From an uncultured Chloroflexia bacterium (lineage in GTDB: Bacteria > Chloroflexota > Limnocylindria > Limnocylindrales > CSP1-4), in the NCBI GenBank assembly GCA_963850035.1, contig CAWKJP010000005.1, forward strand, positions 195,644 through 259,643: DNA of 64,000 nt, in the 5' to 3' direction. The notes under the pieces are model-generated. The model was given only the letters and a program-made list of their open reading frames with translations, was not told where the DNA came from and made no database searches. This document shows, in pieces, positions 12,276 to 37,203 of this stretch; the stretch's first letter is position 1, and each line of letters begins with the position of its first letter. Position numbers and translations under genes: made by a program.

Positions 12276-12335
12276 GGACACCCTCGCGCGCTCAGATTGC
12301 GCTCCAAGGGCGACCGGCAACGTCGCTCGTACTGC

Positions 12336-14018
12336 GTGCGCCCTCCCTGGGCGCCACGCAGCGGACTCGGGGTGAGGATTGAACGGCCAGGCCTGGACGT
12401 GGTGAAGCGACCCGCGGTCGCGATCCGCGACGAGTCCTCCGTGCGATTCCGGGGGTTGCTGGAGGCGGCCCCGGACGCCATGGTCGTGGTGGACCAGGAT
12501 GGGATGATCGCCCTGCTCAATCTGCAGGCGGAGAAGCAGTTCGGTTACCGACGTGATGAGCTGGTCGGCCAGCCCGTCACGAACATTATCCCGGTCGGGT
12601 TCGCCGAACAACTGATCGCGGACGACCTGCGCTCGGCCGCCGAAGCCCTGGCCCAGCAGATCGGCACCGGCATCGAGCTCGCCGGGCGGCGCAGGGACGG
12701 CAGCGAGTTCCCCATCGAGATCATGCTGAGCCCCCTCGAGAGCGCCGAGGGGATCCTCGTCATCGCGGCCATCCGCAACATCAGCGTGCGCAAGGAAGCC
12801 GAACACCAGCTGCTCCAGGCCCAGAAGCTCGAGTCGATCGGCAGGCTGGCCGGAGGGATCGCCCACGACTTCAACAACATGCTCTTCGTGATCAACGGGC
12901 ACGCCGAGATGCTCGACCAGGACCTGGTGCCGGCGCGACGGGCAGCGCTCGATCTCGACGAGGCGCTTCGCAACGTCCGGGCGATCCGGGAGGCTGGCGA
13001 GCGGGCCGCGACGCTGACGTCGCAGCTCCTCGCTTTCAGCCGCCAGCAGGTCATCCGTCCGACCGTGCTGGACCTCAACGCCGCCATCGAGGCCCTCGAG
13101 CCGATGATCCGCAATCTCATCGGCGAGAACATGCGGCTCGTCGCGAAGCCGGGTCGGGACGTCGGTCACATCCTCGCGGATGCGGGCCAGATCGACCAGA
13201 TCCTCGTCAACCTCGCCGTCAACGCCCGCGACGCGATGCCGGACGGCGGAACAGTGACGATCGAGACGGGGGACGTCCTCGTCGACGAGCCGTACGCGGT
13301 CGAGCGCTTTGGCCTTCGGCGAGGGCTGTACGTCCAGCTCGTGGTCAGCGACACCGGGATCGGGATGGACCATGCGACGAGGGAGCGCATCTTCGAACCC
13401 TTCTTCACGACGAAGCAGCTCGGAAAGGGCACCGGTCTCGGGCTCGCAACGGCCTATGGGATCGTCCACCAGGCCGGCGGCCACATCTGGGTGTACTCGG
13501 AGCCCGGCGTGGGTTCGGCGTTCAAGCTGTACTTTCCGCGGGTCGAGTCTCCCGTGTCGTCCGTGCCGCCGGACATCTCCGTCGCACCCGCGTCCGGAAC
13601 CGGCACGATCCTCGTGGTCGAGGATGAGCCCGTCGTGCGCGACATGACCACGCGGATGCTGATCCGGGCCGGGTATCACGTGATCCCGGTCGCTGACGGC
13701 GCCGACGCCATCGCGCAGCTCGCCCGGCTCGACGAGCCGATCGACGTGCTCGTCACCGACGTCATCATGCCGAACATGTCGGGCATTGAGCTCGCAGGCC
13801 TGGTGATGGATCGGGACCCGGCCGTGGGCGTCGTGATGCTCTCGGGGTATACCGCCGAAACCCTCAACCTCGAGCGCGTCACGACGCGCGGGGCGCTGTT
13901 CGTGCCGAAGCCCGTCACTTCTGGCCAGCTCGTGCTCGCGGTTCAGCGCGCCCGTGCCGTTCGAGGGGAAGCCAAGGGGCGCGACCAATCAGAGCCACGT
14001 GCGCGGTCGGGCTCGTGA
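12336..14018 (+). CDS. hybrid sensor histidine kinase (PAS - HisKA - HATPase - C-terminal receiver)
   Basis: It has a PAS domain (...MVVVDQDGMIALLN...), an H-box (LAGGIAHDFNNML), an ATPase G-boxes (DTGIGMD, GTGLGLA) and a receiver (ILVVEDEP...VLVTDVIMPNMSG). The start is uncertain. The ORF opens at ATG 12270, which lies inside the palindromic motif, and in-frame GTGs occur at 12336, 12372 and 12399. The stop overlaps the next gene's start (ATGA). Confidence 0.8.
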   Translation: MRPPWAPRSGLGVRIERPGLDVVKRPAVAIRDESSVRFRGLLEAAPDAMVVVDQDGMIALLNLQAEKQFGYRRDELVGQPVTNIIPVGFAEQLIADDLRSAAEALAQQIGTGIELAGRRRDGSEFPIEIMLSPLESAEGILVIAAIRNISVRKEAEHQLLQAQKLESIGRLAGGIAHDFNNMLFVINGHAEMLDQDLVPARRAALDLDEALRNVRAIREAGERAATLTSQLLAFSRQQVIRPTVLDLNAAIEALEPMIRNLIGENMRLVAKPGRDVGHILADAGQIDQILVNLAVNARDAMPDGGTVTIETGDVLVDEPYAVERFGLRRGLYVQLVVSDTGIGMDHATRERIFEPFFTTKQLGKGTGLGLATAYGIVHQAGGHIWVYSEPGVGSAFKLYFPRVESPVSSVPPDISVAPASGTGTILVVEDEPVVRDMTTRMLIRAGYHVIPVADGADAIAQLARLDEPIDVLVTDVIMPNMSGIELAGLVMDRDPAVGVVMLSGYTAETLNLERVTTRGALFVPKPVTSGQLVLAVQRARAVRGEAKGRDQSEPRARSGS

Positions 14019-19077: not shown

Positions 19078-19524
19078 TCACCCGGGCGAGCAGGCCGAGC
19101 AGCGGCCCACGATCGAAAGGTGCGACAGGTTCACGTGGAACCGCCGGTCGCGGGTGAGTGTCCGCGTAAGCCGGCGCGCCTCGTCCGCCTCGATCTCCCA
19201 CGTGCTGCCGCACGCCTCGCACCGGAGATGGCCGTGCTCCTTCGACGGGAGGACGTGGAACTCCTCGCGTCCGTCGTGACCGTGGGAGTGGCGGACCAGG
19301 CCGATCTCCTCGAGCACGTCGAGGGTCCGGTAGACGGTCGAGGCGGTGGTCTCCGGGTCGATCGCGCGGCATCGCTCGACGAGCTCCCCGCCGGTCACGT
19401 GGCCATCCGCCCCGACGAGCACCTCGACCAGCGCCCGTCGCTGGGGGGTCCAGCGCAACCCACGGGCGTGAAGCTCGGCTCGTGCCCGGGAGATCGCGTC
19501 GGGGAGCGGGGGGGCCTCAGCCAT
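19078..19524 (-). CDS. Fur-family transcriptional regulator (probably nickel-responsive, Nur-like, given its neighbour)
   Basis: 149 aa starting at an internal ATG (MAEAPPLPDAISRARAELHARGLRWTPQRRALVEVL...HSHGHDGREEFHVL...HGHLRCEACGSTWE...). It has a Fur-family fold with H/C-rich metal sites and is divergent from the NiCoT transporter. Confidence 0.8.
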   Translation of the reverse strand: MAEAPPLPDAISRARAELHARGLRWTPQRRALVEVLVGADGHVTGGELVERCRAIDPETTASTVYRTLDVLEEIGLVRHSHGHDGREEFHVLPSKEHGHLRCEACGSTWEIEADEARRLTRTLTRDRRFHVNLSHLSIVGRCSACSPG

Positions 19525-19675
19525 GGTCGCGCGATCGTACATCCGTGACGCGGGATGCCGCGTACTTGTGGGTGTACGACGTGCCTGCGCCCCGCCCAGA
19601 TGCGACATCGTGCAATAGCGACGACCCTCTGGTAGGCTCTCAGTCCCTCTCCTCCGCGTCCCCAGGAGGCCCGCG
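19525..19675. promoter_or_regulatory. divergent promoter/operator region between the Fur-family regulator and the NiCoT transporter
   Basis: A 151-bp intergenic region with short inverted repeats (CATCC-N8-GGATG; CGTAC...GTACG) and a TGCAAT hexamer. I could identify no clear full palindrome. Confidence 0.35.
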
Positions 19676-20761
19676 ATGCTGACCGCGCTCCGTCGCCTGA
19701 TCGGCTCTTCCGGCGCCCTGCGCAACCGGGTCGTCGCGGTCTACGCGTTCCTGGTGGTCTTCAACCTCCTGGCCTGGACCCTCGCGATCGTGAGCTCGAC
19801 CGCCTACCCGATCATGCTCCCGACAGCCTTCCTGGCCTACACGTTCGGACTCCGCCACGCCGTGGACGCCGACCACATCGCGGCGATCGACAACTCGACC
19901 CGCAAGCTCATGCAGGACGGCGAGCGACCCGTGGCCGTCGGGCTCTTCTTCTCCCTGGGCCACTCGACGATCGTGGTCGGCCTGACGGTCCTGGTCGCGA
20001 TCTCGGCCGGGATCATCAGCGACATTCCGGCCGCCCGGCAGGTCGGCGGCCTCATCGGGACCGCCGTCTCCGGCACGTTCCTGCTCGTCATCGGGATCAT
20101 CAACCTCGTGGTCCTGCTCGACATCACCCGGATGTTCCGGCAGGTCGCGGCCGGCGGGTCGTACAGCGAGGAGAGCCTCGAGGACTTCCTCAACAACCGG
20201 GGCCTGCTCGCCCGGCTCCTGCGGCCGATGCTCCGGCTGATCCGCAAGAGCTGGCACATGTATCCGCTTGGGGTCCTCTTCGGGCTCGGATTCGACACCG
20301 CGAGCGAGGTGGCGCTCCTCGGCCTGGCTGCCACGTCCGGCGCCGGCCACCTCCCGGTCCCGTTGATCCTGATCCTCCCGGCGCTGTTCGCGGCCGGGAT
20401 GTGCACCATCGACGCGACCGATGGCATCCTCATGCTCGGCGCGTACGGCTGGGCCTACGTCAAGCCGATCCGCAAGCTCTACTACAACCTCAACATCACC
20501 CTGGTGTCGGTCCTCATCGCGTTCGTCGTGGGCGGGATCGAGATCCTGAGCATCGTGGCTTCGCAATTCCACCTGACCGGCGGGATCTGGGACTTCGTGA
20601 GCGGGGTGGACTTCGGCCTGATCGGCGTGGCGATCGTGGCAGTCTTCGTGGTGAGCTGGGGCGCGTCCACCCTGATCTACCGCTGGAAGGGCTACGACAA
20701 CCTGACGCCGGGCCCGGCGAAGGACGCCTCCGGGCTCGACGGCTTCGACCGGGCCGCCTGA
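19676..20761 (+). CDS. HoxN/HupN/NixA-family high-affinity nickel/cobalt transporter (NiCoT)
   Basis: 361 aa with 8 predicted TM helices. It carries the canonical NiCoT signature (RHAVDADHIAAID) and LGHS / GLGFDTASEV motifs. Confidence 0.85.
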   Translation: MLTALRRLIGSSGALRNRVVAVYAFLVVFNLLAWTLAIVSSTAYPIMLPTAFLAYTFGLRHAVDADHIAAIDNSTRKLMQDGERPVAVGLFFSLGHSTIVVGLTVLVAISAGIISDIPAARQVGGLIGTAVSGTFLLVIGIINLVVLLDITRMFRQVAAGGSYSEESLEDFLNNRGLLARLLRPMLRLIRKSWHMYPLGVLFGLGFDTASEVALLGLAATSGAGHLPVPLILILPALFAAGMCTIDATDGILMLGAYGWAYVKPIRKLYYNLNITLVSVLIAFVVGGIEILSIVASQFHLTGGIWDFVSGVDFGLIGVAIVAVFVVSWGASTLIYRWKGYDNLTPGPAKDASGLDGFDRAA

Positions 20762-23033: not shown

Positions 23034-24746
23034 TCATGAACCCGGCGCCCGCCCGCGCACGCCCGGAGGGCTGCGTACGGGTGCCACGATGCCGGGATCG
23101 GGGCCCGTCTCGCGCTGGTCCATGGCGTGGCGGTCGGTTGCGCGCATGACGTGCTTCGCCTGGTACATGTGCCGGTCCGCCTCGCTGATGAGCTCGTCGA
23201 GCGTCCGCGGACGATCCGGGTCGAATAGGGCGACCCCGGCGCTGAGCGAGATCGCAAACGCGCGGTCCGGGGCCTCGTTGGCTCGCTGGACCACGTCGCC
23301 GATCCGCTGCACGAGCCTGACCCCGTCCGTGGGCGTGACCTCAGTCGCCAGGATCGCGAACTCGTCGCCGCCGAATCGGGCGACGAGGTCGGCCTCCCGG
23401 AACGTCCGGGTCCGCAGCAGATCGGCTGCCTCGCGGAGCGCCTGGTCCCCGGCCTCGTGGCCGAGGCGATCGTTGATCTCCTTGAGGCCGTCGAGGTCCG
23501 CGAAGACGAGCCAGAGCCGGTTCCGCGTTCGGATCGACGTGCGGAGCTGCTGCTCGGCGAGCGTCGTGAAGCCCCGCCGGTTCAGGAGCCCGGTCAACCC
23601 ATCGGTCAGCGACAGCATGCGGATGGTCTCGACCATCTGGCGCCGCTCGGTCACCTCGCGCAGCACCACGAGCATCCCGGCATGGCCCCGGCGCTCGTCC
23701 TCGAGCGCGCTGCGCCGCACGTTGAACCACCGAGCCGCCGGGGGAGGCCCATCCGCCGGCGCGGGGCCCTGGGGCTCGGGTCGCACGGGTTCGATGGGGA
23801 TCTCCACCTCGCCTTCCCCGGCCGCCTGGCACGCCACGACGAGCGCAGGGAACCTGTGGAGGACGTCGTCGATCGCCTGCCCCACGGCATCCCGACCGAT
23901 CCCGAGGAGTCTCGTCGCCGACAGGTTGAACGCCGCGATCCGCCGCTCCGGATCCAGCACGAGCACGGCATCCGCGAGCGAGTCGACGAGCGTCGGCCAG
24001 GCGACCGGCATGACCTCGAGCAGCCGGGCCCGGAGGACGGCCCACGCGCCGATGAGCCCGGCGACCGCGAACGCGATCGAGCTCAGGTCGGCGTGCACCT
24101 CCGACTCGAGCCCGGCCACGTAGACGACGCTGACGACCACCGGCACGAGCGACCCGACGATGACGATCCGCATCCGAGCCGAGTAGACCCGGGGATATCG
24201 GTAGATGGCGGCCACGAGCGCCAGGAGCCCGACCCCGATGAGGATGTAGGCATACGCAGCCACCACCCAGAACCACGGGCCATGCTCGTAGACGGCGGTG
24301 ACGCCCCAGGCGTCGATGAGCGTGACCTTCGTCCAGAGGAGGTGGTGCCACTCGTTCGTCGCCGCCACGCCCACCGAGATGCTCGGCACGAGCAGCAGGA
24401 GCGCGACCCGGCCACGAGTGAGCCATGCGTCCTGGCGCGTCCATGCCAGCACGAAGAGCAGGTAGAGAACCGGTGCGCTCTCGATGCCGGCATAGGCGAC
24501 GACGGACCAGGCGATCTTCATCGTCCGATCGACGGCCGACGCTTCGAGCGCGTTCGCGAGCAGCCACCAGCCGACGGCAAGCATCAGGAGCGCGAGGCCG
24601 CCGGCGCCGACGAGGTGGCGTCGCCGCCACGCCGCAAGCGCCACCCCGACCGCGACCGCGGCAGAAGCCAGGTACGACAGGACGAGGAGGTTCAGCTGCA
24701 ACGAGCCCTCCGGGGCGAGGAGCGGGATACCGTTGCATTGCGGCAT
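23034..24746 (-). CDS. membrane sensor (about 7 TM) - PAS - GGDEF diguanylate cyclase
   Basis: 570 aa with an N-terminal polytopic domain, a PAS domain and a GGDEF domain carrying an intact active site (RFGGDEFAIL). Confidence 0.85.
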   Translation of the reverse strand: MPQCNGIPLLAPEGSLQLNLLVLSYLASAAVAVGVALAAWRRRHLVGAGGLALLMLAVGWWLLANALEASAVDRTMKIAWSVVAYAGIESAPVLYLLFVLAWTRQDAWLTRGRVALLLLVPSISVGVAATNEWHHLLWTKVTLIDAWGVTAVYEHGPWFWVVAAYAYILIGVGLLALVAAIYRYPRVYSARMRIVIVGSLVPVVVSVVYVAGLESEVHADLSSIAFAVAGLIGAWAVLRARLLEVMPVAWPTLVDSLADAVLVLDPERRIAAFNLSATRLLGIGRDAVGQAIDDVLHRFPALVVACQAAGEGEVEIPIEPVRPEPQGPAPADGPPPAARWFNVRRSALEDERRGHAGMLVVLREVTERRQMVETIRMLSLTDGLTGLLNRRGFTTLAEQQLRTSIRTRNRLWLVFADLDGLKEINDRLGHEAGDQALREAADLLRTRTFREADLVARFGGDEFAILATEVTPTDGVRLVQRIGDVVQRANEAPDRAFAISLSAGVALFDPDRPRTLDELISEADRHMYQAKHVMRATDRHAMDQRETGPDPGIVAPVRSPPGVRGRAPGS

Positions 24747-24858
24747 CCCATCCTAACCGCCCGACACCCGCCCTCGGACCCGTCCGGCGCCGCCTGCGCC
24801 CGGTGCGGCCCCGGCCCCGATCCCGGCCGGGACCCGGCGGAGCCGGGCGCCCATCGGA

Positions 24859-26097
24859 TCAGTCCAGGTCCACGCTGGAGAGCGTCCGCAGGCCGTGCTC
24901 GGCGATGGCGCGGTTCACCGATTCCGGGACCGGCTGGTAGCCGGCTGCGAACGCGGTCGGATCGGCGCTGAGGATCCGCATGGCGTGGGCCTGGAGCGCG
25001 AATCCCAGGTCCATGATCTCGATCTGGTGGCCGGTCCCGGCCGACAGGTTGAGCATCTCGCCGCGGGCCAGGAGGTGGACGCGGCGGCCGTTCGGCAGGT
25101 CGAACTCCTCGACGTGGGTGTTCACCGGGCGCGAAGCCGTCGCCATGGCGCGCAGGGCGTCGACGTCGATCTCCGTCGCGAAGTGGCCCATGTTCCCGAG
25201 CATCGCCCCGTCCTTCAACCGCGTGAGGTGCTCGCCGGTCACGACGCCGGGCCGACCGGTCACGGTGATGATCGTGTCGGCGCGCTCGACCGCGCGGTCG
25301 ATCGTCGTGACGTGCATCCCCTCGAACGCCGCCTCGAGGGCGCGGACGGGGTCGATCTCGACGACGATGACGATTGCGCCCAGCGCCCGCAGGGTGCGGG
25401 CAAGGCTGCGGCCGCACCATCCGAAGCCGGCCACGGCGAACGTCTTGCCCGCGATGAGCGTGTTGGTGGCGCGCATGAAGCCATCGACCGCGGCGGGCCC
25501 GATCCCGCGCTCGCTCTCGAAGGCAAGCTTGATGGGGCTGTCGTTGATGACGATCACCGGGTAGCGGATGCGCCCGGCAAGCTCGCCCACGAGGCGGTTG
25601 CGGCCGGAGGTCGTCTCCTCGGTGGCGGCGACGACCCGCGACGCGGGATCGTCCACGGTGCCCGCGATGAGGTCCGCGCCATTGTCGAGGAGCAGGTCCG
25701 GGTCGGATCGCAGGACCCGCGCGACGTGCTCGCGATGGACCGCCATGTCGTCGGCCTTCGCCGAGTAGATGCGAACCCCGGGCCGCATGCCCATCGCGGC
25801 GGCGACGCCGTCGTCGGTGGTCGCCGGGCTCCCTGTCCAGGCGATCTCCGCCCCGCCGGCGAGCAGCGTCTCCACGAGCACCGCCGTCTTGGACTCGACA
25901 TGGAGGCACATCCCGATTCGCCGGCCCTCGAGCGGACGCTCGTGCGCGAGCTCGACGCGCAGGCGGGCCAGGACCGGCATGTGCGCGCGTGCCCACGCGA
26001 TTCGCGCCTCACCCTCGGCTGCGAGCGCGGGGTCGGCGACGACGCTCGCCTCGAGGCTCGGGAACGGGATCGGCGACGTCGGTTCGATGGCAGGCAC
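24859..26097 (-). CDS. ahcY: adenosylhomocysteinase
   Basis: It has conserved SAHH blocks (HMPVLARL, an NAD-binding GKTFAVAGFGWCGRSLA, and HxxxxxxD). The start is uncertain. I used the GTG at 26097, which gives an N-terminus of about 18 aa before the conserved ADPALAAEG block. An ATG at 26160 is an alternative. Confidence 0.8.
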   Translation of the reverse strand: MPAIEPTSPIPFPSLEASVVADPALAAEGEARIAWARAHMPVLARLRVELAHERPLEGRRIGMCLHVESKTAVLVETLLAGGAEIAWTGSPATTDDGVAAAMGMRPGVRIYSAKADDMAVHREHVARVLRSDPDLLLDNGADLIAGTVDDPASRVVAATEETTSGRNRLVGELAGRIRYPVIVINDSPIKLAFESERGIGPAAVDGFMRATNTLIAGKTFAVAGFGWCGRSLARTLRALGAIVIVVEIDPVRALEAAFEGMHVTTIDRAVERADTIITVTGRPGVVTGEHLTRLKDGAMLGNMGHFATEIDVDALRAMATASRPVNTHVEEFDLPNGRRVHLLARGEMLNLSAGTGHQIEIMDLGFALQAHAMRILSADPTAFAAGYQPVPESVNRAIAEHGLRTLSSVDLD

Positions 26098-26145
26098 GGC
26101 GCGGCGAGTATACGGGCGCGGCCGGGGCGCCTCTGCGTGCCCCAC

Positions 26146-26163
26146 ATGACACCTCGTCATGAC
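26146..26163. promoter_or_regulatory. conserved palindromic motif, site 2 (ATGACA-cct-CGTCATGAC)
   Basis: Read directly. It lies in the divergent region between ahcY (-) and the multi-PAS hybrid kinase (+). Confidence 0.35.
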
Positions 26164-26363
26164 TGGAGGGCGCGGACAGGACACAGTGACGATGGACGAG
26201 CGTGTCCTCCCGGCACCCGCGAGCCGCGCGGGGGTCGGGCGACCGACCCGTCGCGCGCTACATGGGTGAGCACAGATGGCCGAAGACCTGGACGTCACGA
26301 CCCAGCCGAACGTGCTCGCAGGCACGCGGCATCTCGCGCGACGCTCACGAAGGTCCCGGCCAC

Positions 26364-29300
26364 ATGGTGACGCCGGCCGACCGTGCCCCGACCGGCACTG
26401 GGGGCGATGACACGCCCCATCAGGCCGCCGTGGGAGAAGACAGGGCCGCGCGGGCGCTCGAATGGCCCGCGCTCCTGGCTGCCCTCATCGCCATCGGCAT
26501 CGGGCTCGTGGTGCTCCTCGGGTGGGCGACGGGCCCCGGTATCCTCCGCACGTTTCTGCCTGGCGCGCCTCCCATGAAGGTGGGGGCGGCCATCCTGTTC
26601 CTGCTGCTCGGCGTGGCCCTGACCCTGCGAGTGGCAGGTCGGAATCCTCGCGTCGCAGACGCCCTCGCGATCGTCGTGGCCGTCGTCGCGCTTGCCACCC
26701 TGCTCGAATACGCCGCCGGCATCGATCTCGGCTTCGATCGGCTCTTTGTGGCGGACGTGATCGGGCCCGGCGCACCATTCCCTGGGCGCATGGCCGTGAG
26801 CACAGCGGTCGGGCTCGTCGCTGGTAGCCTCACGGTCGTCCTGCTCGGGCGTAGCTGGCTCGGCTGGCGCGTGCGGACGATCCTCGCGGTCGTCGTCGGA
26901 CTGATCGGCGGACTGGGGGTCCTCGGCTACCTGTACGACGCGACCGCGCTCGTCGCCCTCGGGTCGGCGAGTCAGATCGCGCCCCCGACTGCGCTCGGCT
27001 TCGTTATCTTCGCGGCCGGCCTTGTTGCCGCCGATCAGGAGCACGGGCTCATGCCGGTGATCCGCGATCGGGGACTCGCGGGCCAGCTGACGCGTCGGAT
27101 CACGCTGACCATCGCCGTGGTGCTGCCCCTCGCCGGCTGGCTGGACGTGCGGCTCGTTGGCGCCGGCCTGGTGGGCGACGGGCTCGCGATGGCCGCGATC
27201 GTCGGCTTCGAGGTCCTCGTGCTCGGGATCGCCGGAATCTGGACCTCGGGCGGCGTCCTCCGGCTCGAGCGCGCGCGCACGGTCGCCGAGGGTGAGCGCG
27301 ACCAGCAGCTGGAGGTCTCCGAGCGCCTCGTCTTTGCCATCGACAGGTCGACTGACGGGATCGTCATCACCGACCCCGACCGGCGCATCGTCTATGCCAA
27401 CACGGCCCTCGGCAGGACCATGGGCCGTGAACCGGCGGAGCTCGTCGGGATGCCTGTCACACAGGTCACGGCCACCGCCGTGGGCGCCGCCGTCGACGCG
27501 GCCGGCGATGGGGAATGGTCCGGCGAGATCGATCGCCTGGGGCCGGACGGGACGCCGCTTCGCCTCGAGGTGAGGATCACGCCGATCCGTGGTCCGCAGG
27601 GTGAGGTCTCGGCCTGGCTCGGCATGAACCGGGACATCACGGCCGCGCACCAGGCCCGCATGGCCCTCGAGTCATCGGAGCGGCACTTGCGCACCGCGCT
27701 CGACACGATGCTCGACGGCGTCACCATCCAGACGGCAGTTCGCGACGGGACGGGCAGGATCGTCGACTTCCGGGTCGACTACGCCAACTCCGCGATCGGC
27801 CTGATCAGCGGCACGGCGGCCAGCCTCCAGGCGGGGCGCACCCTGCTCGATCTGTTCCCCGCCCACCGGACGAACGGGCTCTTCGATGCGTATGTCCGGG
27901 TGGTCGAGACCGGCGTCGCGTTCCAATCCGAGGCGTTCCACTACGTCGACCCCGACGCGGAGGCCGGACCGCTCGACCAGGTGCTCGACCTGCGGGCCGC
28001 CAGGATCGGCGACGGCTACGTCCTCTCGGTCCGCGACGTGACCGGGCACCGCAAGGCCGAGCAGGTGCTCGTGGAGCAGCGGGCTCTTCTCGCCGCGCTG
28101 ATGGACAACACCCCGGACCACATCTACTTCAAGGACGCCGAGAGCCGCTTCACGATGATCAGCAGGGCCCTGGCGACCTCGTTCGGCCTTGGCGAAGCGT
28201 CACAGGCGGTTGGCAAGGCCGATCTCGACTTCTTCACGGACGAACACGCCCGCATGGCGCTCGAGGACGAGCGCCAGATCATGCGCTCCGGCGTCCCACT
28301 CGTGGGTCTCGAGGAGCGGGAGACACGGCTCGACGGCCGCGAGACCTGGGTCTCGACCACCAAGCTGCCCCGCCGGGATCGCGACGGGTCGATCGTGGGT
28401 ACCTTCGGGATCTCGCGCGACATCACCACGCGCAAGCAGGCCGAGACGGCGCTCGCCGAGACGAACCGGCGCCTGGAGGAAGCCATCACCCGGGCCACGG
28501 AGATGACCCTGCGGGCGGAGACGGCCAACGCCGCCAAGAGCGAGTTCCTGGCCAACATGAGCCACGAGATCCGGACGCCGATGAACGGGGTCATCGGGAT
28601 GATCGGGCTCCTGCTGGACACGGAGCTCGAGGCGGACCAGCGACACTACGCCGAGACCGTCCGGGCGAGCGGCGAAGCCCTCCTCGACCTCCTGAACGAC
28701 ATCCTCGACTTCTCGAAGATCGAGGCCGGTCAGGTCGAGCTGGAGACGCTCGACTTCGACCTGCGCACCCTCCTGGACGACTTCGCGGTCATGCCGGCCA
28801 TGCGCGCCCACGAGAAGGGGCTGGAGTTCATCTGCGCCACGGCTCCGGACGTACCCGCCCGTCTTGCCGGCGATCCGGGACGACTCCGCCAGGTGCTCCT
28901 CAACCTGACAGGCAACGCCATGAAGTTCACGCACCAGGGCGAGGTCTCGGTGCGGGCAGGCCTCCTGGCCGAGACCGGGGCCGACGTCGTCATCCGCTTC
29001 TCGGTCAAGGACACCGGGATCGGGATCGCACCCGAGAAGCAGGCGCGAATGTTCGAGAAGTTCACCCAGGCGGACGCGTCGACCACCCGTCGATACGGTG
29101 GCACGGGTCTTGGCCTCGCCATCTCCAAGCGGCTCGTGGAGCTGATGGGCGGGGAGATTGGCATCGCGAGCGAGGAGGGTCGCGGGTCGGAGTTCTGGTT
29201 CACGGTGCGCCTCGCGAAGCAGGCCGAATCGGACCGCCCGGCGATCCCGGTGGCGGAGCTGCGCGGCGCCCACATCCTCGTGGTGGACGACAACGCCACG

Positions 29301-30251
29301 AATCGCGAGGTCCTGTCTGCCCAGCTCCGTGCCTGGGACGCGCGCCCGCAGGAGGTGCCGGACGGCCCCTCGGCGCTCCTCGCGCTTGCACAGGCGCGGG
29401 ACGCGGGCGATCGCTTCGTCGCGGCGATCCTCGACATGCAGATGCCGGACATGGACGGGACGGACGTCGCCCGTGCCATCAAGGCCGACGAGACGCTGAA
29501 GGACACGCGCCTTGTGCTGCTGACCTCCCTCGGCAAGCGAGGCGATGCGCGGGAGATGGAGGAGATCGGCTTCTCCGCGTACCTGATGAAGCCTGCGCGA
29601 CAGTCGGACCTGTTCGACAGCCTTTCGGCCGTCCTGGCCGGCTCGGAGGTCAGTCGCCGCTCGCGACATATCGTCACCCGCCACGCGGTCCGGGAGATGC
29701 GCCGCGGCGCGGTCCGCATCCTGCTGGCCGAGGACAACCTCACCAACCAGCAGGTCGCGCTGGGAATCCTGCGAAAGCTGGGCCTGCGTGCGGACGCCGT
29801 CGGAGACGGCGCCGAGGCGGTCCGGGCGCTCGAGACGATCCCGTACGACCTCGTGCTCATGGACGTGCAGATGCCGGAGATGGACGGCCTGGAGGCCACC
29901 GCCAGGATCCGCGATCCGATGTCCGCGGTCCTGCACCACCACGTCCCGATCGTCGCGATGACCGCCCACGCCATGCAGGGTGACCGAGACCGCTGCCTGG
30001 AAGCCGGGATGGACGACTACGTCACCAAGCCCATCTCGCCCGACGCGCTGGCGGCGGCACTCGATCGGTGGCTGCCCCGGGAGGAGCCCGCCCCCACTGC
30101 CCATCCGGACGCGGCACGCCCGTCCGAGGTGCGCACCGCCGTGGTCGGTGCCGAGGCATCGAATGCCGGCCCGGACGCGACCGGGGCTGGATCCCGACTC
30201 GACGGCGCCCGTCTTCGACGCGGCGGGGATGATGGACCGGCTCATGGGTGA
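26364..30251 (+). CDS. multi-PAS hybrid sensor histidine kinase with two C-terminal receiver domains
   Basis: It has an N-terminal polytopic membrane domain, at least four PAS domains, an H-box ([17 protein letters not shown]), an ATPase ([18 protein letters not shown]) and two REC domains ([10 protein letters not shown]...[11 protein letters not shown]; [10 protein letters not shown]...[12 protein letters not shown]). The ORF opens at 26202. I placed the start at ATG 26364 ([11 protein letters not shown]), which has GAAGG about 10 nt upstream. An ATG at 26262 is also possible. Confidence 0.85.
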
Positions 30252-30570
30252 CCAGGAGCTCGCCGGGATCATCGTGCATGGCTTCCTGGAGGACTTGCCG
30301 CGATTGATCGAGGCGCTCAGGAACTCCCTCGCCGTCGGTGACGCGCCGGGCGCGATCCGCGGGGCCCACACCATCCGCGGCGCGTCGGCCACCGTCGGCG
30401 GGGAGGCGCTGCGCGCGGTGGCGTGGGAGATGGAGAAGGCGGCCACCGCAGGCGAATTCGGCGCCGTGAGCGCCCGTCTCCCGGAGCTCGAGCTCGAGCT
30501 CGGCCGACTCCGCGAGGCGATGGGCGCCTTCATCGACGCACTCCCGCGTGTCGCGGAAGCCCCGGCATGA
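30226..30570 (+). CDS. Hpt (histidine phosphotransfer) domain, either a standalone ~114-aa protein or the frameshifted C-terminus of the hybrid kinase
   Basis: It carries the Hpt signature (GAHTIRGASATVGGEALRAVAWEME). An ATG at 30226 overlaps the kinase stop at 30249-30251. Conserved Hpt-like residues (PVFDAAGMM) extend upstream in this frame, which suggests an original fusion. Confidence 0.5.
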   Translation, partial: GMMDRLMGDQELAGIIVHGFLEDLPRLIEALRNSLAVGDAPGAIRGAHTIRGASATVGGEALRAVAWEMEKAATAGEFGAVSARLPELELELGRLREAMGAFIDALPRVAEAPA

Positions 30571-30574
30571 CCCC

Positions 30575-31498
30575 ATGAGGATCCTCATCGCGGACGACGA
30601 CCTCACCTCGCGCCTGGTCCTCGCGGGCGTGCTGAAGAAGTGGGGCCACGAGGTGGTGGCCACGGTGGACGGCGGGCAGGCATGGGAGGCGATGCAGCGC
30701 CCGGACGCGCCCGCGGTCGCGATCCTCGACTGGATGATGCCCGAGCTCTCCGGGGTGGAGGTGTGCGGCCGGGTCCGGGGCCTTCACTCCGACCAGCCGC
30801 CCTACCTCATCCTCCTGACCGCGAAGGGTGAGAAGTCCGACATCGTCGCGGGACTGGAGGCGGGCGCGGACGACTACCTGTCCAAGCCGTTCGACCCGGG
30901 AGAGCTGCGTGCGCGCGTCGACGTGGGCCGGCGAATCATCGAGCTGCAGGCGCGCCTGCTTGAGACGCGCAACGCGCTCGAGCACGAAGCGACGCACGAT
31001 CCGCTCACCGGCGCGATCAACCGGCGCGCGTTCTCGGATGTCCTGGCTCGCGCCCTCTCGGAGGAACGGCGGCATCACGACGGGCTGGCCCTCGGGATCT
31101 GCGACGTCGACAGCTTCAAGACGATCAACGACACGCACGGGCACCAGGTCGGGGACGAAGTGCTCGTCGAGCTCGTCCGTCGGATCACGGGCAAGCTGCG
31201 CGGACACGACGTCCTGAGCCGCCACGGCGGCGACGAGTTCGTGGTGCTCGTGGGGCATGTCGGGGAGACGGACGTGGTCACGCTCTTCGAGCGCATGCGG
31301 GCCGCGGTCGAGGAACATCCGATCCCCACGAAGGTCGGGGACGTGTCCGTCACGCTGAGCTTCGGCGTCAGCAGATGGACGGAAGGCCAGACCGAGGACG
31401 CGCTCGTCGCTGCCGCCGACGTTGCCCTGTACCGGGCCAAGAGCGCGGGACGCAATCGCGTTGCCCTTGCTGGCGACCCGGCGGCGTCCGCCACGTAG
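30575..31498 (+). CDS. response regulator REC-GGDEF (PleD-like diguanylate cyclase)
   Basis: It starts 4 nt after the Hpt stop. It has a REC domain (MRILIADDDLTSRLVL...ILDWMMPELSG) and a GGDEF domain with an intact active site (RHGGDEFVVLV). Confidence 0.85.
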   Translation: MRILIADDDLTSRLVLAGVLKKWGHEVVATVDGGQAWEAMQRPDAPAVAILDWMMPELSGVEVCGRVRGLHSDQPPYLILLTAKGEKSDIVAGLEAGADDYLSKPFDPGELRARVDVGRRIIELQARLLETRNALEHEATHDPLTGAINRRAFSDVLARALSEERRHHDGLALGICDVDSFKTINDTHGHQVGDEVLVELVRRITGKLRGHDVLSRHGGDEFVVLVGHVGETDVVTLFERMRAAVEEHPIPTKVGDVSVTLSFGVSRWTEGQTEDALVAAADVALYRAKSAGRNRVALAGDPAASAT

Positions 31499-31594
31499 GA
31501 GCTGCGGACCCGAGCGCGGGTCGCCGGGCTCATCTCGGCGCCGCCGCTCGATCCCGGCCACCCGCGACCCGCGTCGAGCGGTGGCAGCACGCTC

Positions 31595-31614
31595 GTGACG
31601 ATCCGTCATGACAC
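31595..31614. promoter_or_regulatory. conserved palindromic motif, site 3 (GTGACG-atc-CGTCATGACAC)
   Basis: Read directly. ATGACA is followed 16 nt later by TAGGTT (31630-31635), a plausible -35/-10 pair. Confidence 0.35.
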
Positions 31615-34600
31615 GCGCGCTCGGTCTGTTAGGTTCAACCATGGATTGGCCTGCCCGTCCTGCTATCGCCGCCCGCCCGGGTGGCCATCGCGAGTGGCTC
31701 CTCCAGGGTGTCGCATGCGTGAGAATCGGGGCAAGGCGGGCAGAGCTGCCGCCTCCCCATCCGTCGGCCTCCGACGAGACGGCGCCCGCGACAGCTCCCC
31801 TGGCCGGGCGGGAGCGCCTGCGCCTGGCGCCCGTTCGACGGGAGCACCGCCCAGGGCGCGCCGGTCGCGCGAGCGGGCGGAGGCCGAGCTTCGCGAGAGC
31901 GACATCCGATATCGATCGGTGCTCGCCGCGCTCGAGGAAGGGGTCGTGCTCCACGGCCCGGACGGCGCAATCACCGAGCACAACGCGGCCGCCGGAACCA
32001 TTCTCGGCCTCGCGAGCGACGAGCTGATCGGCCGAATGCCGGCGGATTCGCGGTGGCAGGCGATCCACGAGGATGGATCGCCGTTTGCAGGCGACACGCA
32101 CCCGGCGGTGCGCACCCTGGCCACCGGCGAGCCATGCTCCGGCGTCGTCATGGGGATCCGGAAGCCTGACGGCTCGCTCACCTGGATCCAGGTCAACTCG
32201 CGGCCCATCCTCCAGGAAGGCGAGACGCACCCATCCGCCGTGGTCGTCTCGTTCTTCGACATCACCGAGCGCGAGGAGCGCTCCCGCCAGCGGGATCACC
32301 TCCAATCTGCGATCGAGGAGTCGTTCGATGGGATGGTCATCATCGGCCGCGATCTGCGGATCGTCTATGCCAACGCGACGGCCGCGCAGGGCGTGGGACA
32401 CGTCGCTGCCGACCTCGTGGGACGACCCATCACGGAGGTCGCGGGAGCCGTCCTGGATCCAGCCCAGGTCGCCGAAATGATGGAAACGGTCCTGGACGAG
32501 AGGCAATGGACCGGGGAGGTCGATCGTCAAGGACCGGAAGGGACGCCGCGTCGCGTCGAGGTCAGGATCACCCCGACCCGCGACGAACGCGGCACGATCT
32601 CGTCGTGGATCGGGGTGATCCGCGATGTCACGGCGGAGCATCGGGGCCGGGCGGCGCTCGAGTCGTCAGAGCATCGCCTTCGGATCGCGCTCGACACGAT
32701 GCTCGACGGCGTCGCGATCCAGTCGGCCGTGCGCGACGACACGGGACGGATCGTCGATTTTCGGGTCGACTATGTGAACGCAGCGATCGGCGTGGTCAGC
32801 CGAATGGCGGGCATTCCCCGGGTCGGACATAGCCTGCTCGAGCTGCTCCCCGCTCATCGGACCAATGGACTCTTCCAGAGCTACGTCGCCATGGTGGAGA
32901 CCGGTGTCCCATTCTTCGCAGACGGCTTCCACTACGTGGATCCCGACGCGGCGGGCGGACCCCTCGATCAGATCGTCGACCTGCGCGCTGCCAGGATGGG
33001 CGAGGGCTACGTGCTGTCGGTGCGCGATATCAGCGGGCGGCACCGGGCCGAGCGCGAGATGCGGCGCCTGTCGAGGGCAATCGAGCAGTCGGCAGAGTCG
33101 GTCATGATCACGGACGCGACCGGTGCGATCGAGTACGTGAACCCCGCGTTCGAGCAGGTCAGCGGATACACGCGCGACGAGGTCCTCGGCCGGAACCCGC
33201 GGCTCCTCAAGAGCGGCGTCCAGGATTCCGCCTTCTACGCCGCGATGTGGGACGCCCTCACGAGCGGGCAGACATTCGTGGCAGACATGACGAACCGGCG
33301 CAAGAACGGGGAGATCTACCAGGAGGAGAGCGTCGTCTCGCCGATCCTCGACGAGACCGGGACGATCACGAGCTACGTGGCGGTGAAGCGTGACGTCACC
33401 CGCGAACGCGCCTCGGAGGACGTCCGCGAGAGCCTCGCCCGGGAGCGTGCCCTCATTGCGACGGCCCTCTCCGGGCTGCACGTCCTGCCGACCCCGGCCG
33501 CGACGGCCGCGGCGATCTGCCGGCAGATCGTGGGCCTGGCCGGCGTCGCGAGCGCTTCCCTCGCCTACTTCACCCTCGAGGGTCCGGCTCTCGCGCTTGC
33601 CTTCGTGCGGGCCGACGGCGTGCCCGTGCGACTGCGGCGGCTGCCATTCCAGCGCAGCAGGGTCCTGCGCGAACGGGCCGAGGAGGGTCCGTGGGTGGAG
33701 ACCTGGGTCCACCGGCCCTGGCACCCGTACGACCGGCTCCACACCGACCTGGGCACCGCGGCCCTCGCCTACGCGCCGGTCCGCAGCGGCGGCACGCTCA
33801 TCGGCCTCCTGACAGTCACCTCGGATAGTGACGACGCGATCGAGCGGCTCACCGAGACCCTGCCGGGCCTGCTCGAGTTCGCTGGCTTCGCGGGCGCGCT
33901 CGTCGGCCGGGCGGTGGCCGACCTGACCGAGCTTGGCGCCACCCGCGAACGGATCGCGCAGATCATCAAGAGCGCGGCCTTCCGGCCGGTCTTCCAGCCG
34001 GTTGTCGAGCTCGCGACCGGCGCCAGGGTCGGCTACGAGGCCCTCACCCGCTTTGCCGACGGGACGGCCCCCGACCTCGTCTTCGCCGACGCGCGTGCCG
34101 CCGGGCTCGAGGCGGAGCTCGAGCTCGCCACCCTTGCGGGCGCGATCGCAGCGGCCACGGGGCTGCCGGGCGGTGCCTGGCTCAGCCTCAACGCGTCGCC
34201 CAACCTCGTGGGCGCGAGCTCGCGCCTCGCGGGATTGGTGCGCAGGGCAGACCGGCCGATCGTGCTCGAGGTGACCGAGCATGTGGCTGTCGCGGACTAC
34301 GCGGCCCTGCGCGCCGCGCTCGGCAGACTCCGCCCCAAGGTACGGGTCGCCATCGACGACGCGGGCTCGGGGATCGCCAACTTCAGCCACATCGTCGAGC
34401 TGCGGCCGGCCTTCGTGAAGCTCGACATCGGGCTCGTCCGCGGGATCGACACGGACCTGACCCGACAGGCCCTCATGGTGGGCCTGCTCCATTTCGCGAG
34501 CGAGTCATCCAGCCTGACGATCGCCGAGGGCGTCGAGACCCCGGAGGAGCTCGCGATGCTGCAGGCGCTCCACGTGCCGCTCGCCCAGGGCTACCTGCTG

Positions 34601-34804
34601 GGCCGCCCCGCGCCCGTCGCCGAGTGGGCGGAGACGCGGGGCATCACCGGGCCGGGACACGTGCCGCGGAACGGCAGGGGCGCGAGGCGCGCGACGGGCG
34701 CGCCTGCGCGGGTCGCCGCAACAACCGGACGCCAGGAGATCGCGAGCCCACGAGCCGGTGATACCACCGATCGCGGGGGCGACGATCCGAACGCCGCGGG
34801 TTGA
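31595..34804 (+). CDS. multi-PAS - GAF-like - EAL c-di-GMP phosphodiesterase
   Basis: At least four PAS domains are followed by an EAL domain (YEALTRF, EVTEH, DDAGSGIANFSH, KLD, EGVETP, QGY). The true start is uncertain. The first ~100 codons are Arg/Pro-rich low-complexity sequence that overlaps the motif, and the first PAS domain begins near 31900. Confidence 0.8.
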   Translation: MTIRHDTRARSVRFNHGLACPSCYRRPPGWPSRVAPPGCRMRENRGKAGRAAASPSVGLRRDGARDSSPGRAGAPAPGARSTGAPPRARRSRERAEAELRESDIRYRSVLAALEEGVVLHGPDGAITEHNAAAGTILGLASDELIGRMPADSRWQAIHEDGSPFAGDTHPAVRTLATGEPCSGVVMGIRKPDGSLTWIQVNSRPILQEGETHPSAVVVSFFDITEREERSRQRDHLQSAIEESFDGMVIIGRDLRIVYANATAAQGVGHVAADLVGRPITEVAGAVLDPAQVAEMMETVLDERQWTGEVDRQGPEGTPRRVEVRITPTRDERGTISSWIGVIRDVTAEHRGRAALESSEHRLRIALDTMLDGVAIQSAVRDDTGRIVDFRVDYVNAAIGVVSRMAGIPRVGHSLLELLPAHRTNGLFQSYVAMVETGVPFFADGFHYVDPDAAGGPLDQIVDLRAARMGEGYVLSVRDISGRHRAEREMRRLSRAIEQSAESVMITDATGAIEYVNPAFEQVSGYTRDEVLGRNPRLLKSGVQDSAFYAAMWDALTSGQTFVADMTNRRKNGEIYQEESVVSPILDETGTITSYVAVKRDVTRERASEDVRESLARERALIATALSGLHVLPTPAATAAAICRQIVGLAGVASASLAYFTLEGPALALAFVRADGVPVRLRRLPFQRSRVLRERAEEGPWVETWVHRPWHPYDRLHTDLGTAALAYAPVRSGGTLIGLLTVTSDSDDAIERLTETLPGLLEFAGFAGALVGRAVADLTELGATRERIAQIIKSAAFRPVFQPVVELATGARVGYEALTRFADGTAPDLVFADARAAGLEAELELATLAGAIAAATGLPGGAWLSLNASPNLVGASSRLAGLVRRADRPIVLEVTEHVAVADYAALRAALGRLRPKVRVAIDDAGSGIANFSHIVELRPAFVKLDIGLVRGIDTDLTRQALMVGLLHFASESSSLTIAEGVETPEELAMLQALHVPLAQGYLLGRPAPVAEWAETRGITGPGHVPRNGRGARRATGAPARVAATTGRQEIASPRAGDTTDRGGDDPNAAG

Positions 34805-35037: not shown

Positions 35038-36805
35038 ATGACCCTGCGCGCTCGGGGCTCCTCGATCGCCACCGTCGCCTGGGTCGACGACGCGATCGAG
35101 ATCATCGACCAGACGAAGCTCCCGGCCACGTGCGAGATCCTGCGCCTCGAGACGGTCGACGCCGCGATCGACGCGATCCGCCGGCTGGCCGTGCGCGGCG
35201 CCCCCGCGATCGGCGTCTGCGGTGCGCTCGCAGTCGTGCTCGGCCTCGACGAGGCGCGTGCCACATCCCGTGCCAGGGGCGATCGCGGCCCTGGACAAGC
35301 ACGTCGTGCGCGTCGGCTCCGCCCGGCCCACCGCCGTCAACCTCTCCTGGGCGGTCCGCAGGGTGCGCGACGCGGCGGCTTCCGGGTCCACGCCAGCCGA
35401 GATCCGCGAGCGCGCGCTCGGCGAGGCGCTGCAGATCCTGGATGAGGACCGCGAGGCATGTCGCCGGATCGGCGAGTTCGGGCGCGTCGAGCTCGCCACG
35501 GCCATGCGGATCCTCACCCACTGCAATGCCGGCCGCCTGGCCACGCTGGGCTGGGGAACGGCACTCGGGGTCGTCTACGCGAAGGCTGCCGCGGGCGAGC
35601 GGGTGCAGGTCTTCGCGTGCGAGGCACGGCCGCTCCTGCAGGGAGCCCGCCTGACCGCCTGGGAGCTGATGGACGCGGGGATCGACGTCACGCTCATCGT
35701 CGACAGCGCCGCCGCGGCGCTCCTCCACAGCGGCCGTGTCGACGCCGTGGTCGTTGGGGCGGACCGGATCGCCGCCAATGGCGACACGGCGAACAAGGTC
35801 GGCACGTTCGGGCTCGCGCTCGCGGCGCGCCACGCGGGCGTCCCCTTCTACGTCGCCGCGCCCCGCTCCACGTTCGACCTGGCGACGCCGTCGGGCGATG
35901 CGATCGTGATCGAGGAGCGGCCAGCCGACGAGGTGCGCGGCTGGCAGGGGAGGGCTTCCGCGCCGCTGGACGTTCCCGCGTGGAATCCCGCCTTCGACGT
36001 CACGCCGCACGCGCTCGTGACGGCCTACCTCACCGACGCCGGCGTCCTCCACCCGCCGTTCGCCGAGCTCTCCGACGCGAGGCGCCCGGTGGCGGGGCGC
36101 CCGATGCAGCGTGCCATGACCGTGCCGTCCACCTGGACCGACGCACGGGAGCGGGTCCTCGTCTTCGCGCGGCGACTGCTGGCCGAACGCCTCGTCTACT
36201 TCACCGCGGGCAACATCAGCATGCGCATCGCGGACGACCCGGACCTGGTGGCGATGACGCCGGCGAGCACGCCGTACGACACGATGCGGTCCACCGACGT
36301 GGTGATCGTGCGCCTCGACGGGAGCGTCGTGGACGGGGCCCTGAAGCCGACGTCCGAGCTGCCGCTGCACACCATCACGTACGCGCGCCGCCCGGATGTC
36401 GCCGGGATCGTCCACACCCACAGCGCCGCCGCGATGGCGGCAGCGGCCATGGGCCTCACGATCCCCCCGATCCTTCACGGCCTGGTGGCGGCATGCGGGG
36501 GCGGCATCGTGACGGCGCCGTACGCCGGCGGCGGGACCGCGGAGATGGCGGAGCGCACGGCGGACGCCCTCCGAGACCGGAGCGCGTGCCTCCTCCGCAA
36601 CCACGGCGCGCTCGCGATCGGGCCGACGGTCGACCACGCCTACAACGCCGCCTCGGTGGTCGAGGGCGTCGCCGACGCGTATCTCCGGGCGCTCGCCTTC
36701 GGACCGGTGCCGGAGATCGAGCCCCACGAGGTGGCCCGGATCCGGCGCGAGCAGTGGGCACCCGCGTGGAGCGCGGGACCCGCCGTCCCCACCCACGGCG
36801 GATAG
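35038..36805 (+). pseudogene. mtnA: fused methylthioribose-1-phosphate isomerase (MtnA) / class-II-aldolase-type methylthioribulose-1-phosphate dehydratase (MtnB); apparent frameshift near 35266-35282
   Basis: The N-terminal frame (MTLRARGSSIATVAWVDDAIEIIDQTKLP...AVRGAPAIGVCGALAVVLGLDEA) matches MtnA and ends in junk. The second frame continues MtnA (...PGAIAALDKHVVRVGSARPTAVNLSWA...GADRIAANGDTANKVGT...) and then, without a stop, a class II aldolase/adducin domain (...YFTAGNISMRIADDP...IVHTHSAAAMAAA...LLRNHGALAIGPT...). Confidence 0.7.
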
Positions 36806-36885
36806 GCTCCCCTCCTTCGCCGCGGAGAGTACGCCCGTGCCCGTGCTCGCCCGGGCGCCGTGCGGGAATCCCCGCGCGGGCCAGC

Positions 36886-36905
36886 ATGACGCGGCGTCAT
36901 GACAC
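36886..36905. promoter_or_regulatory. conserved palindromic motif, site 4 (ATGACG-cgg-CGTCATGACAC)
   Basis: Read directly. It lies 115 nt upstream of the small CxxC ORF at 37021. Confidence 0.35.
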
Positions 36906-37020: not shown

Positions 37021-37203
37021 ATGTTGACCGACCATCCCCTGGCCCAGTCCGCCTCCAGCGTTCCCGTCCGTTGCTCTGACTGCCTGCTGCCGTTCGACGC
37101 CCGCGACGCCCATCGCCAGATGCGCACACTCGATGGCCCCCTCGCCCTCTGCAGCGACTGCACCTGGCGCCTCGAGCACCCGGGAGACGCCCGGCGCGCC
37201 TGA
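37021..37203 (+). CDS. small putative zinc-ribbon protein (CxxC-x28-CxxC), 60 aa
   Basis: MLTDHPLAQSASSVPVRCSDCLLPFDARDAHRQMRTLDGPLALCSDCTWRLEHPGDARRA. It is in-frame within the shadow ORF 35458..37203. I see no clear ribosome-binding site. Confidence 0.3.
   Translation: MLTDHPLAQSASSVPVRCSDCLLPFDARDAHRQMRTLDGPLALCSDCTWRLEHPGDARRA

Follow-up and report, generated by a model that had tools for sequence, protein, structure and literature searches.

We analyzed a 64,000-nucleotide (nt) stretch of contig CAWKJP010000005.1 (assembly GCA_963850035.1, positions 195,644 to 259,643) from an uncultured Chloroflexia bacterium, hereafter the window (~72% GC), focusing on a region of about 12 kb rich in genes predicted to act in cyclic di-GMP (c-di-GMP) signaling. 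At the center of this region lie a gene for a large hybrid histidine kinase and, directly downstream, one for a response regulator that joins a receiver (REC) domain to a GGDEF diguanylate cyclase domain. A second GGDEF gene and ahcY (S-adenosyl-L-homocysteine hydrolase) precede this pair on the minus strand, and a multi-PAS EAL gene follows it. Because of the high GC content of the window, open reading frames (ORFs) were assessed by Pfam matches combined with GC content at third codon positions (GC3), which was high throughout the ORFs considered here. An earlier note, made from the DNA letters, had described the region as a c-di-GMP phosphorelay supercluster. Its domain assignments (7TM-PAS-GGDEF, AhcY, hybrid kinase with two RECs, Hpt, REC-GGDEF and multi-PAS EAL) all hold in the Pfam annotation, and translations and motif scans agree with it that the GGDEF and EAL active-site motifs are intact. 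Domain totals for the window were two GGDEF, two EAL, two kinase cores, five REC and one Hpt. The note's count of two histidine kinases and two EAL proteins is thus right, while its three GGDEF proteins reduce to two: tblastn searches with three GGDEF queries, a scan of all six frames for the motif, and Pfam searches of the remaining large ORFs revealed no third GGDEF domain in the window. Feature coordinates are given in Table 1.

Table 1. Signaling genes, frame break and palindromic sites in the window, numbered from its first nucleotide.
Feature	Position	Strand	Evidence or context
Palindrome CCGATGACGTTCTGTCATGAC (14/18)	12254-12274	+	Upstream of second kinase operon
Second hybrid kinase, PAS-HisKA-HATPase-REC, CckA-like, without Hpt	12270-14018	+	Pfam, NCBIfam
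REC-PAS-PAS-GAF-EAL response regulator	14015-16438	+	Pfam, tblastn
HisKA_7TM-PAS-GGDEF diguanylate cyclase	23034-24746	-	Pfam HisKA_7TM 1e-54, GGDEF 2e-37
ahcY (S-adenosyl-L-homocysteine hydrolase)	24859-~26145/26160	-	Pfam AdoHcyase, AdoHcyase_NAD
Palindrome CACATGACACCTCGTCATGAC (15/18)	26143-26163	+	Divergent ahcY/kinase region, ~200 nt before kinase ATG
Hybrid histidine kinase as assembled	26364-30251	+	~8 hydrophobic segments, 3 PAS, HisKA, HATPase_c, REC1, REC2
G4 homopolymer at frame break between REC2 and Hpt	30183-30186	+	tblastn frame switch
Hpt domain coding sequence	30199-30570 (ORF 29980-30570)	+	Pfam Hpt 9e-14
REC-GGDEF diguanylate cyclase	30575-31498	+	Pfam; NCBIfam; structure and orthologue alignments
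Palindrome CTCGTGACGATCCGTCATGAC (16/18)	31592-31612	+	~100 nt before first ATG of EAL gene
Multi-PAS-GAF-like-EAL phosphodiesterase (predicted)	31715-34804	+	Pfam: 3-4 PAS, weak GAF, EAL
Palindrome AGCATGACGCGGCGTCATGAC (16/18)	36883-36903	+	Downstream of mtnB, ~120 nt before 60-aa ORF
Two further palindrome copies	47322-47342, 48666-48686		

The residues expected of a multistep phosphorelay are in place throughout the kinase and the REC-GGDEF protein. The kinase has well-supported HisKA and HATPase_c domains (Pfam, 2e-21 and 6e-31), preceded by an N-terminus of about eight hydrophobic segments (by hydropathy) for which profile searches gave no family match. In alignments of 15 kinase orthologues, the phospho-acceptor histidines of HisKA (in MSHEIRTP) and Hpt (in GAHTIRGAS) are both invariant, and the Asp/Thr/Lys sets of the two REC domains are conserved with the sole exception of a Thr-to-Ala change in REC1 of one orthologue. 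The REC-GGDEF protein carries its phospho-acceptor aspartate in ILDWMMP, together with the corresponding Thr and Lys, and an RxxD motif five residues before GGDEF (RGHDVLSRHGGDEF in the window); GGDEF, the RxxD positions and the aspartate are kept in six REC-GGDEF orthologues. Its ATG lies exactly 4 nt past the Hpt stop codon (TGA, 30568-30570). Both the relay order proposed in the earlier note (HisKA to REC to Hpt to REC-GGDEF) and the 4-nt spacing it reported are therefore borne out. The REC-GGDEF protein aligns over its full length with the Rec-GGDEF structures 6zxb/6zxm (E 1e-35 to 1e-37) and strongly matches PleD and WspR, with scores far below the NCBIfam equivalog cut-offs for PleD (NF007135, 208 vs. 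474 bits) and DgcR (NF047654, 164 vs. 500 bits). By these comparisons it is a protein of PleD/DgcR-type architecture, yet not a member of a named equivalog family.

Comparison of six kinase-homologue neighborhoods, together with tblastn searches of the cluster proteins against 86 loci, showed that a kinase-REC-REC-Hpt gene followed by a REC-GGDEF gene is the invariant unit among relatives. The tight coupling of the two genes is kept in seven related loci, with a 4-nt gap in L001, L002/3, L004 and L006 and a 4-nt overlap in L005, and the REC-GGDEF orthologues are 71-85% identical to that of the window. Judged by the kinase, the nearest species representative is a "Chloroflexia" soil metagenome-assembled genome (MAG; L007, 77% identity). 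Among the 86 loci, 15 more distant ones, from Acidobacteriota, Nitrospirota and Planctomycetota and including Granulicella rosea, also have a REC-GGDEF gene immediately after a hybrid kinase gene; the pairing is therefore widespread. A GNAT gene follows the REC-GGDEF gene in L001 (15146-15664) and L002 (15190-15708) and is missing from the window (31499-31594).

The remaining genes of the region are less constant. Only the window and L001, the relative closest to it, have the ahcY and 7TM cyclase genes beside the kinase, in the same gene order, and both genes are absent from this position in L002-L007; the EAL gene is present in L001, displaced by 5.5 kb in L004, and absent from L002/3, L005 and L006. 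From these distributions, all three genes are best described as lineage-specific neighbors, and the 12-kb supercluster of the earlier note gives way to a two-gene core, the only part common to relatives. The 7TM-GGDEF cyclase, with an intact GGDEF and an RxxD I-site five residues upstream of it, had an orthologue in L001 only (85% identity) and on this evidence falls outside the conserved core. It is encoded on the other strand from the kinase, as the note had said, yet is not the divergent partner of the kinase: ahcY, codirectional with the cyclase and 112 nt upstream of it, sits between the two on the minus strand and is therefore the immediate divergent neighbor of the kinase gene. The start of ahcY is uncertain (428 amino acids (aa) in the source call, starting at ~26145, vs. 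405-412 aa in most homologues). Its product belongs with homologues named adenosylhomocysteinase (79-91% identity), the closest named relatives coming from Candidatus Limnocylindrales and Chloroflexota MAGs (79-80%). An Rfam search of the whole window returned no S-adenosylhomocysteine, c-di-GMP or other riboswitch, and a scan for consensus promoters and terminators was uninformative in this 72% GC DNA.

The protein encoded downstream at 31.7 kb is a predicted phosphodiesterase, all metal- and substrate-binding motifs of its EAL domain being present (EALxR, N, EVTE, DDAGSG, KLD, EGVE and QGY). The start codon of its gene is uncertain, and the ORF opens at 31595. Its loop 6 reads DDAGSGIANF, where the canonical form is DFG(T/A)GYSS. 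The best solved relatives of the domain are the active phosphodiesterases BlrP1 and TBD1265 (E 2.5e-18 and 1.7e-13), from which the protein differs in this loop and in having a PAS-GAF sensor instead of BLUF or GGDEF. Two of its PAS domains (PAS2-PAS3) are paralogous to PAS1-PAS2 of the large kinase, at 72% identity in DNA (750 nt) and, for one PAS, 67% in protein. For this kinase-type PAS, identity is 81-89% between kinase orthologues and 64-78% to the EAL-protein PAS of the window and of L004, where an EAL protein with a kinase-type PAS (74-78% identity) is encoded 5.5 kb downstream of the operon; the syntenic EAL protein of L001 (34% identity) lacks it. This patchy distribution implies that the paralogy is old; it fits a common ligand and is no evidence of a single unit. 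We considered and rejected a recent gene conversion of these PAS modules, given that DNA identity is only 72% and that the PAS of the EAL protein stands at the same distance (66-67%) from every kinase orthologue.

A palindromic element recurs upstream of several of these genes. Its consensus, GTCATGACG-N3-CGTCATGAC, spans 21 bp in a 9-3-9 arrangement and is matched at 14 or more of 18 positions at six sites in the window, compared with zero to two in shuffled sequences. The sequence GTCATGAC occurs five times (0.9 expected), a number reached in none of 100 shuffles, and the extended form TGACR-N4-GTCATGAC has four exact copies, all on the plus strand (12258, 26147, 31596 and 36887), and near-copies at 47322 and 48670. 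The four exact copies precede the second kinase operon, the large kinase gene, the EAL gene and a conserved 60-aa ORF, respectively, each by 100-230 nt; the recurring palindrome that the earlier note placed before the EAL gene is thus confirmed. None was found upstream of the 7TM-GGDEF gene of the window. Two other candidates for the recurring palindrome, hairpins at 31507-31585 and the decamer GCGACCCGCG, were not significant (z = -1.6; 8 vs. 3.8 expected). We also discarded the idea that the ATG within the motif serves as a leaderless start, since that ATG opens the right ORF only in some cases and, judged by homologue lengths, the true starts lie further downstream.

Six relatives (L001, L002/3, L004, L006 and L092) keep the kinase-upstream site regardless of the presence of ahcY, and in L001 (9763) and L004 it is a perfect double palindrome; L004 has sites at 9869 and 15856. 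The position at 36.9 kb is likewise kept in L001 (21310) and L002/3 (18886); the 60-aa Cys-rich ORF beyond it in the window (37021-37200, plus strand; CxxC…CxxC) is 93% identical to that of L001 and has no Pfam match. Degenerate copies occur before the PAS-EAL gene of L001 (15913, 15/18) and between a GGDEF gene and a kinase gene of L004, and one persists at 16895 in L002 even though L002/L003 lack the PAS-EAL gene.

A metagenome scan with the perfect 21-mer returned at least 120 matches. Among the matches listed, about half belong to an unrelated low-GC tandem repeat and the other 56 lie on high-GC contigs with varied spacers, the site falling inside an ORF in only four of these 56 loci. Neighboring genes at the high-GC sites, again among the matches listed, include an orthologue of the kinase-REC-REC-Hpt gene, genes for PAS and PAS-kinase proteins, one EAL gene, a family of GGDEF proteins with DQTASDAD repeats, stress-type genes (Transgly_assoc/YmgE-like, BON and DUF5661), YGGT-like, VIT1 and ice-binding-like genes, and sugar-uptake genes. 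The acidic repeat of that GGDEF family ("DQTASDADQTAS") is N-terminal, and its members adjoin the palindrome in L184 (300-1424), L104 (1274-1741) and L176 (14-535). On the low-GC contigs (39-51% GC) the 21-mer belongs to a tandem or REP-like repeat whose flanks are nearly identical (cacgagccGTCATGACGGGCCGTCATGACggctcgtg), for example in L112 (3460-3610) and L183 (1274-1567), and also in L130, L185 and about 50 other loci among the matches listed. Taken with its placement in the window, the palindrome looks like a candidate operator of one regulator, whose stress-type regulon would include c-di-GMP enzymes, and its presence upstream of three signaling units suggests that these are under common transcriptional control.

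Shared elements of this kind raise the question of whether the whole 12 kb should be seen as one co-regulated module, in which two cyclases and one phosphodiesterase would give opposing outputs under a shared sensory input. The PAS-PAS module common to the kinase and the EAL protein points in this direction, with a kinase-type PAS seen also in an EAL protein of L004, as do the palindromes before both genes and the identical gene order in L001. The shared input layer invoked in the earlier note has the same footing, namely the paralogous PAS module and the palindrome common to three units, and is weakened by the age of the paralogy and its absence from the L001 EAL protein. We consider a single module unlikely, because the ahcY/7TM-GGDEF pair is not beside the kinase in L002-L007, the EAL gene is absent from L002/3, L005 and L006, the syntenic L001 EAL protein has no kinase-type PAS, no palindrome was found before the 7TM-GGDEF gene, and the palindrome regulon also holds many genes unrelated to c-di-GMP.

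As assembled, the Hpt domain is encoded in the +1 frame relative to the kinase, in an ORF that overlaps the last 270 nt of the kinase gene; the kinase itself closes with an out-of-frame tail at a TGA (30249-30251). The earlier note had taken Hpt for a stand-alone gene, which did not survive comparison with relatives. Hpt is present in frame, as the C-terminal domain of the kinase, in 14 of the 15 next homologues (66-85% identity), and the fifteenth, P0012, is visibly frameshifted, its C-terminus being out of frame past REC2. Kinase and Hpt tblastn matches fall in the same frame in all seven loci L001-L007 and also in L092; a database protein identical to the window's kinase (P0001) lacks Hpt. 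The frame switch relative to the L001 orthologue was placed by tblastn between 30185 and 30199, at the run CCGGGGCTGG, and in silico removal of one G yields an uninterrupted kinase-REC-REC-Hpt protein of 1401 aa. Moreover, the Hpt-frame sequence ahead of the kinase stop and of the available ATGs already resembles the conserved start of the Hpt domain.

Two more frame breaks were found in conserved genes within ~13 kb, one in a pentapeptide-repeat gene at ~22733, which is divided over two frames relative to its L001 orthologue, and one in mtnA at ~35280, again at a G4 run, such that G4 runs mark two of the three breaks. In addition, mtnA and mtnB are fused as one 527-aa ORF (35222-36805, the merger being placed at 36085-36125), in contrast to relatives, whose mtnA and mtnB are separate and share a 4-nt overlap. 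These two breaks and the mtnA/mtnB merger are probably assembly indels. The kinase gene of L006 is also broken (8788-10007), with its N-terminal membrane domain in another frame, and together with P0012 this is consistent with error-prone assemblies across the relatives. Among named relatives, the closest are MFD MAGs and "contig_N" assemblies, and MFD-type MAGs are Nanopore-only assemblies given one round of Medaka polishing (PMC12313526). Because Hpt is fused in relatives, the break falls at a G4 run, other breaks lie nearby and the relatives are Nanopore-only, we regard it as most probable that the separate Hpt ORF reflects an assembly indel, a single-base insertion in the G4 run.

A real frameshift seems to us improbable, and somewhat more so than a single module. 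The kinase would then end at 30251 and a free Hpt protein of 108-113 aa would start at an ATG that overlaps the kinase stop, its translation coupled to that of the kinase, turning an intramolecular relay into a three-protein relay. Three in-frame ATGs are available for this (30229, 30232 and 30244, the last 5 nt ahead of the kinase TGA), the source gene caller gave exactly such a 108-aa protein from 30244 (P0122), and free-standing Hpt proteins are common in other systems. These points are outweighed by the fusion in 14 of 15 orthologues, by the domain-like sequence still readable before the ATGs, and by the location of the break at a homopolymer, with other breaks in housekeeping-type genes of the window.

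As to what might bind the palindrome, all sites share a TGAC-N5-GTCA core. The Streptomyces BldD box is 5'-TNAC(N)5GTNA-3', and BldD is a c-di-GMP-dependent repressor whose targets include c-di-GMP genes (PMC4151990). The core fits this pattern, whereas the full site is longer (9-3-9) and the host belongs to the Chloroflexota; we take the resemblance as a lead only. No Xre/BldD-like gene was present among the GC3-supported ORFs of the window, and a literature search on GTCATGAC returned nothing bacterial and relevant. A bolder version, which we offer as speculation with little chance of being right, is that in uncultured Limnocylindria-type Chloroflexota the palindrome could be the operator of an as yet undescribed regulator, possibly BldD-like and responsive to c-di-GMP, tying a stress or dormancy regulon (Transgly_assoc, BON, DUF5661) to c-di-GMP genes, with a single Hpt possibly serving both hybrid kinases of the window. 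Such a regulator, if real, would close a transcriptional feedback loop around the phosphorelay.

The second of these kinases belongs to the kinase plus REC-EAL operon that the earlier note placed at 12.3-16.4 kb, where Pfam supports a PAS hybrid kinase and a REC-PAS-PAS-GAF-EAL protein. The two genes overlap by 4 nt, and the true start of the kinase is probably near 12393, since its L002 orthologue has 541 aa. The REC-EAL protein has an 80% identical orthologue in L002, its EAL domain is 57% identical to that encoded at 31.7 kb, and a regular-expression scan of this protein found no exact E[GA]VE match. The only Hpt of the window lies in the large kinase and the second kinase has none, which raises the possibility of a shared Hpt: the second kinase might borrow it in trans to reach REC-EAL, in which case a cyclase and a phosphodiesterase would both be supplied by a single Hpt. 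The hybrid nature of the second kinase, the lack of an Hpt gene in its operon, the single Hpt detected in the window, the proximity of the two operons (~10-16 kb apart in the window and L002/L003, with a REC-PAS-EAL gene upstream in L001 too) and the palindrome at both would fit such branching, as would the precedent of LadS, which uses the Hpt of GacS in Pseudomonas. We nevertheless hold it to be very unlikely: the argument is purely architectural, divergent Hpt domains may be encoded elsewhere in the genome, and the second kinase could phosphorylate REC-EAL directly from HisKA, with its own REC as a sink. Least credible of all is the notion that several frame breaks within ~13 kb are real pseudogenizing mutations that have left the relay broken in this organism, in view of intact catalytic residues, high GC3 throughout the ORFs, G4 runs at two of the three breaks, and a break in mtnA, an essential-type gene, which technical error fits better.

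Outside the signaling genes, the window also encodes a 1188-aa protein with zinc-ribbon, class III adenylate/guanylate cyclase, AAA_16 and TPR domains (4493-8059, minus strand), and L004 has a similar gene 2.5 kb before its kinase. At 19078-20761, a FUR-family regulator gene and a NicO nickel/cobalt transporter gene diverge, an arrangement kept in L001-L003. Members of the PAC2, LppX and AlkZ families, likewise present, raised the idea of an actinobacterial host, which was discarded in light of the relatives of AhcY.

Unorthodox kinases with REC and Hpt domains that control c-di-GMP-metabolizing response regulators are known from the RpfC-RpfG (Xanthomonas), RocS1-RocR and VieS-VieA systems; their outputs are HD-GYP or EAL phosphodiesterases, whereas the output here is a GGDEF cyclase. 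The REC-GGDEF protein resembles DgcR (Leptospira), PleD (Caulobacter) and WspR (Pseudomonas) in its architecture, phospho-acceptor aspartate, GGDEF and RxxD I-site, and differs from PleD, which has two REC domains, and from WspR, which is fed by a CheA-type kinase. In Borrelia burgdorferi, the hybrid kinase Hk1 (core-REC-Hpt) is encoded in one operon with Rrp1, a phosphorylation-dependent REC-GGDEF cyclase (PMC4013479). Here too, a kinase gene of probable core-REC-Hpt layout adjoins a REC-GGDEF gene, with two REC domains on the kinase, and with a polytopic membrane domain lacking a family match plus three cytoplasmic PAS domains in place of the periplasmic sensor domains of Hk1. The likeness is one of architecture. 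On that basis Hk1-Rrp1 is the closest described system, and the locus is predicted to be an Hk1/Rrp1-like multistep phosphorelay to a PleD/DgcR-type cyclase.

Overall, we think it likely that the locus comprises a two-gene phosphorelay operon leading from kinase to cyclase, in which the split Hpt is an assembly error, the neighboring genes are independent, and the palindrome is a shared operator. The functional unit would be a membrane-bound, multi-PAS "unorthodox" kinase (HisKA-HATPase-REC-REC-Hpt in one polypeptide), with REC-GGDEF encoded 4 nt on. Its membrane and PAS domains would sense a signal and so control autophosphorylation of the HisKA histidine; the phosphoryl group would pass to the aspartate of either REC, then to the Hpt histidine, and from there to the aspartate of REC-GGDEF. 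Phosphorylation of the latter would promote dimerization and c-di-GMP synthesis, which product binding at the RxxD I-site would limit. The domains and residues are observed, and the steps of the relay are drawn from established two-component and GGDEF biochemistry. The 7TM-PAS-GGDEF and PAS-GAF-EAL proteins would act as independent, directly sensor-controlled enzymes, placed here in this lineage only, and the palindrome upstream of the kinase operon, the EAL gene and the second kinase/REC-EAL operon would be the operator of one regulator that also governs stress-type genes. Several points weigh against this interpretation. We infer phosphotransfer, cyclase activity and co-transcription from sequence, and likewise infer the Nanopore-only origin of the window's contig from its relatives. 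A genuine frameshift mutation is possible in place of an assembly error, and the three ATGs overlapping the kinase stop could still allow a split Hpt to be translated. Finally, a promoter element or an RNA hairpin is another possible identity for the palindrome.

Signaling by c-di-GMP is scarcely studied in the Chloroflexota, in which the Limnocylindria are abundant and mostly uncultured. For this little-studied phylum, the gene content and conserved residues predict a genuine kinase-to-cyclase phosphorelay with its parts intact, of a kind already known; the arrangement is a textbook one, and current understanding is not overturned by it. The locus offers a clean, conserved kinase-Hpt/REC-GGDEF pair amenable to biochemistry, and also a caution, in that what is probably a long-read frameshift was taken for gene architecture. 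The most interesting by-product is the well-supported cis-element, which defines a candidate regulon that may link c-di-GMP enzymes with stress proteins.

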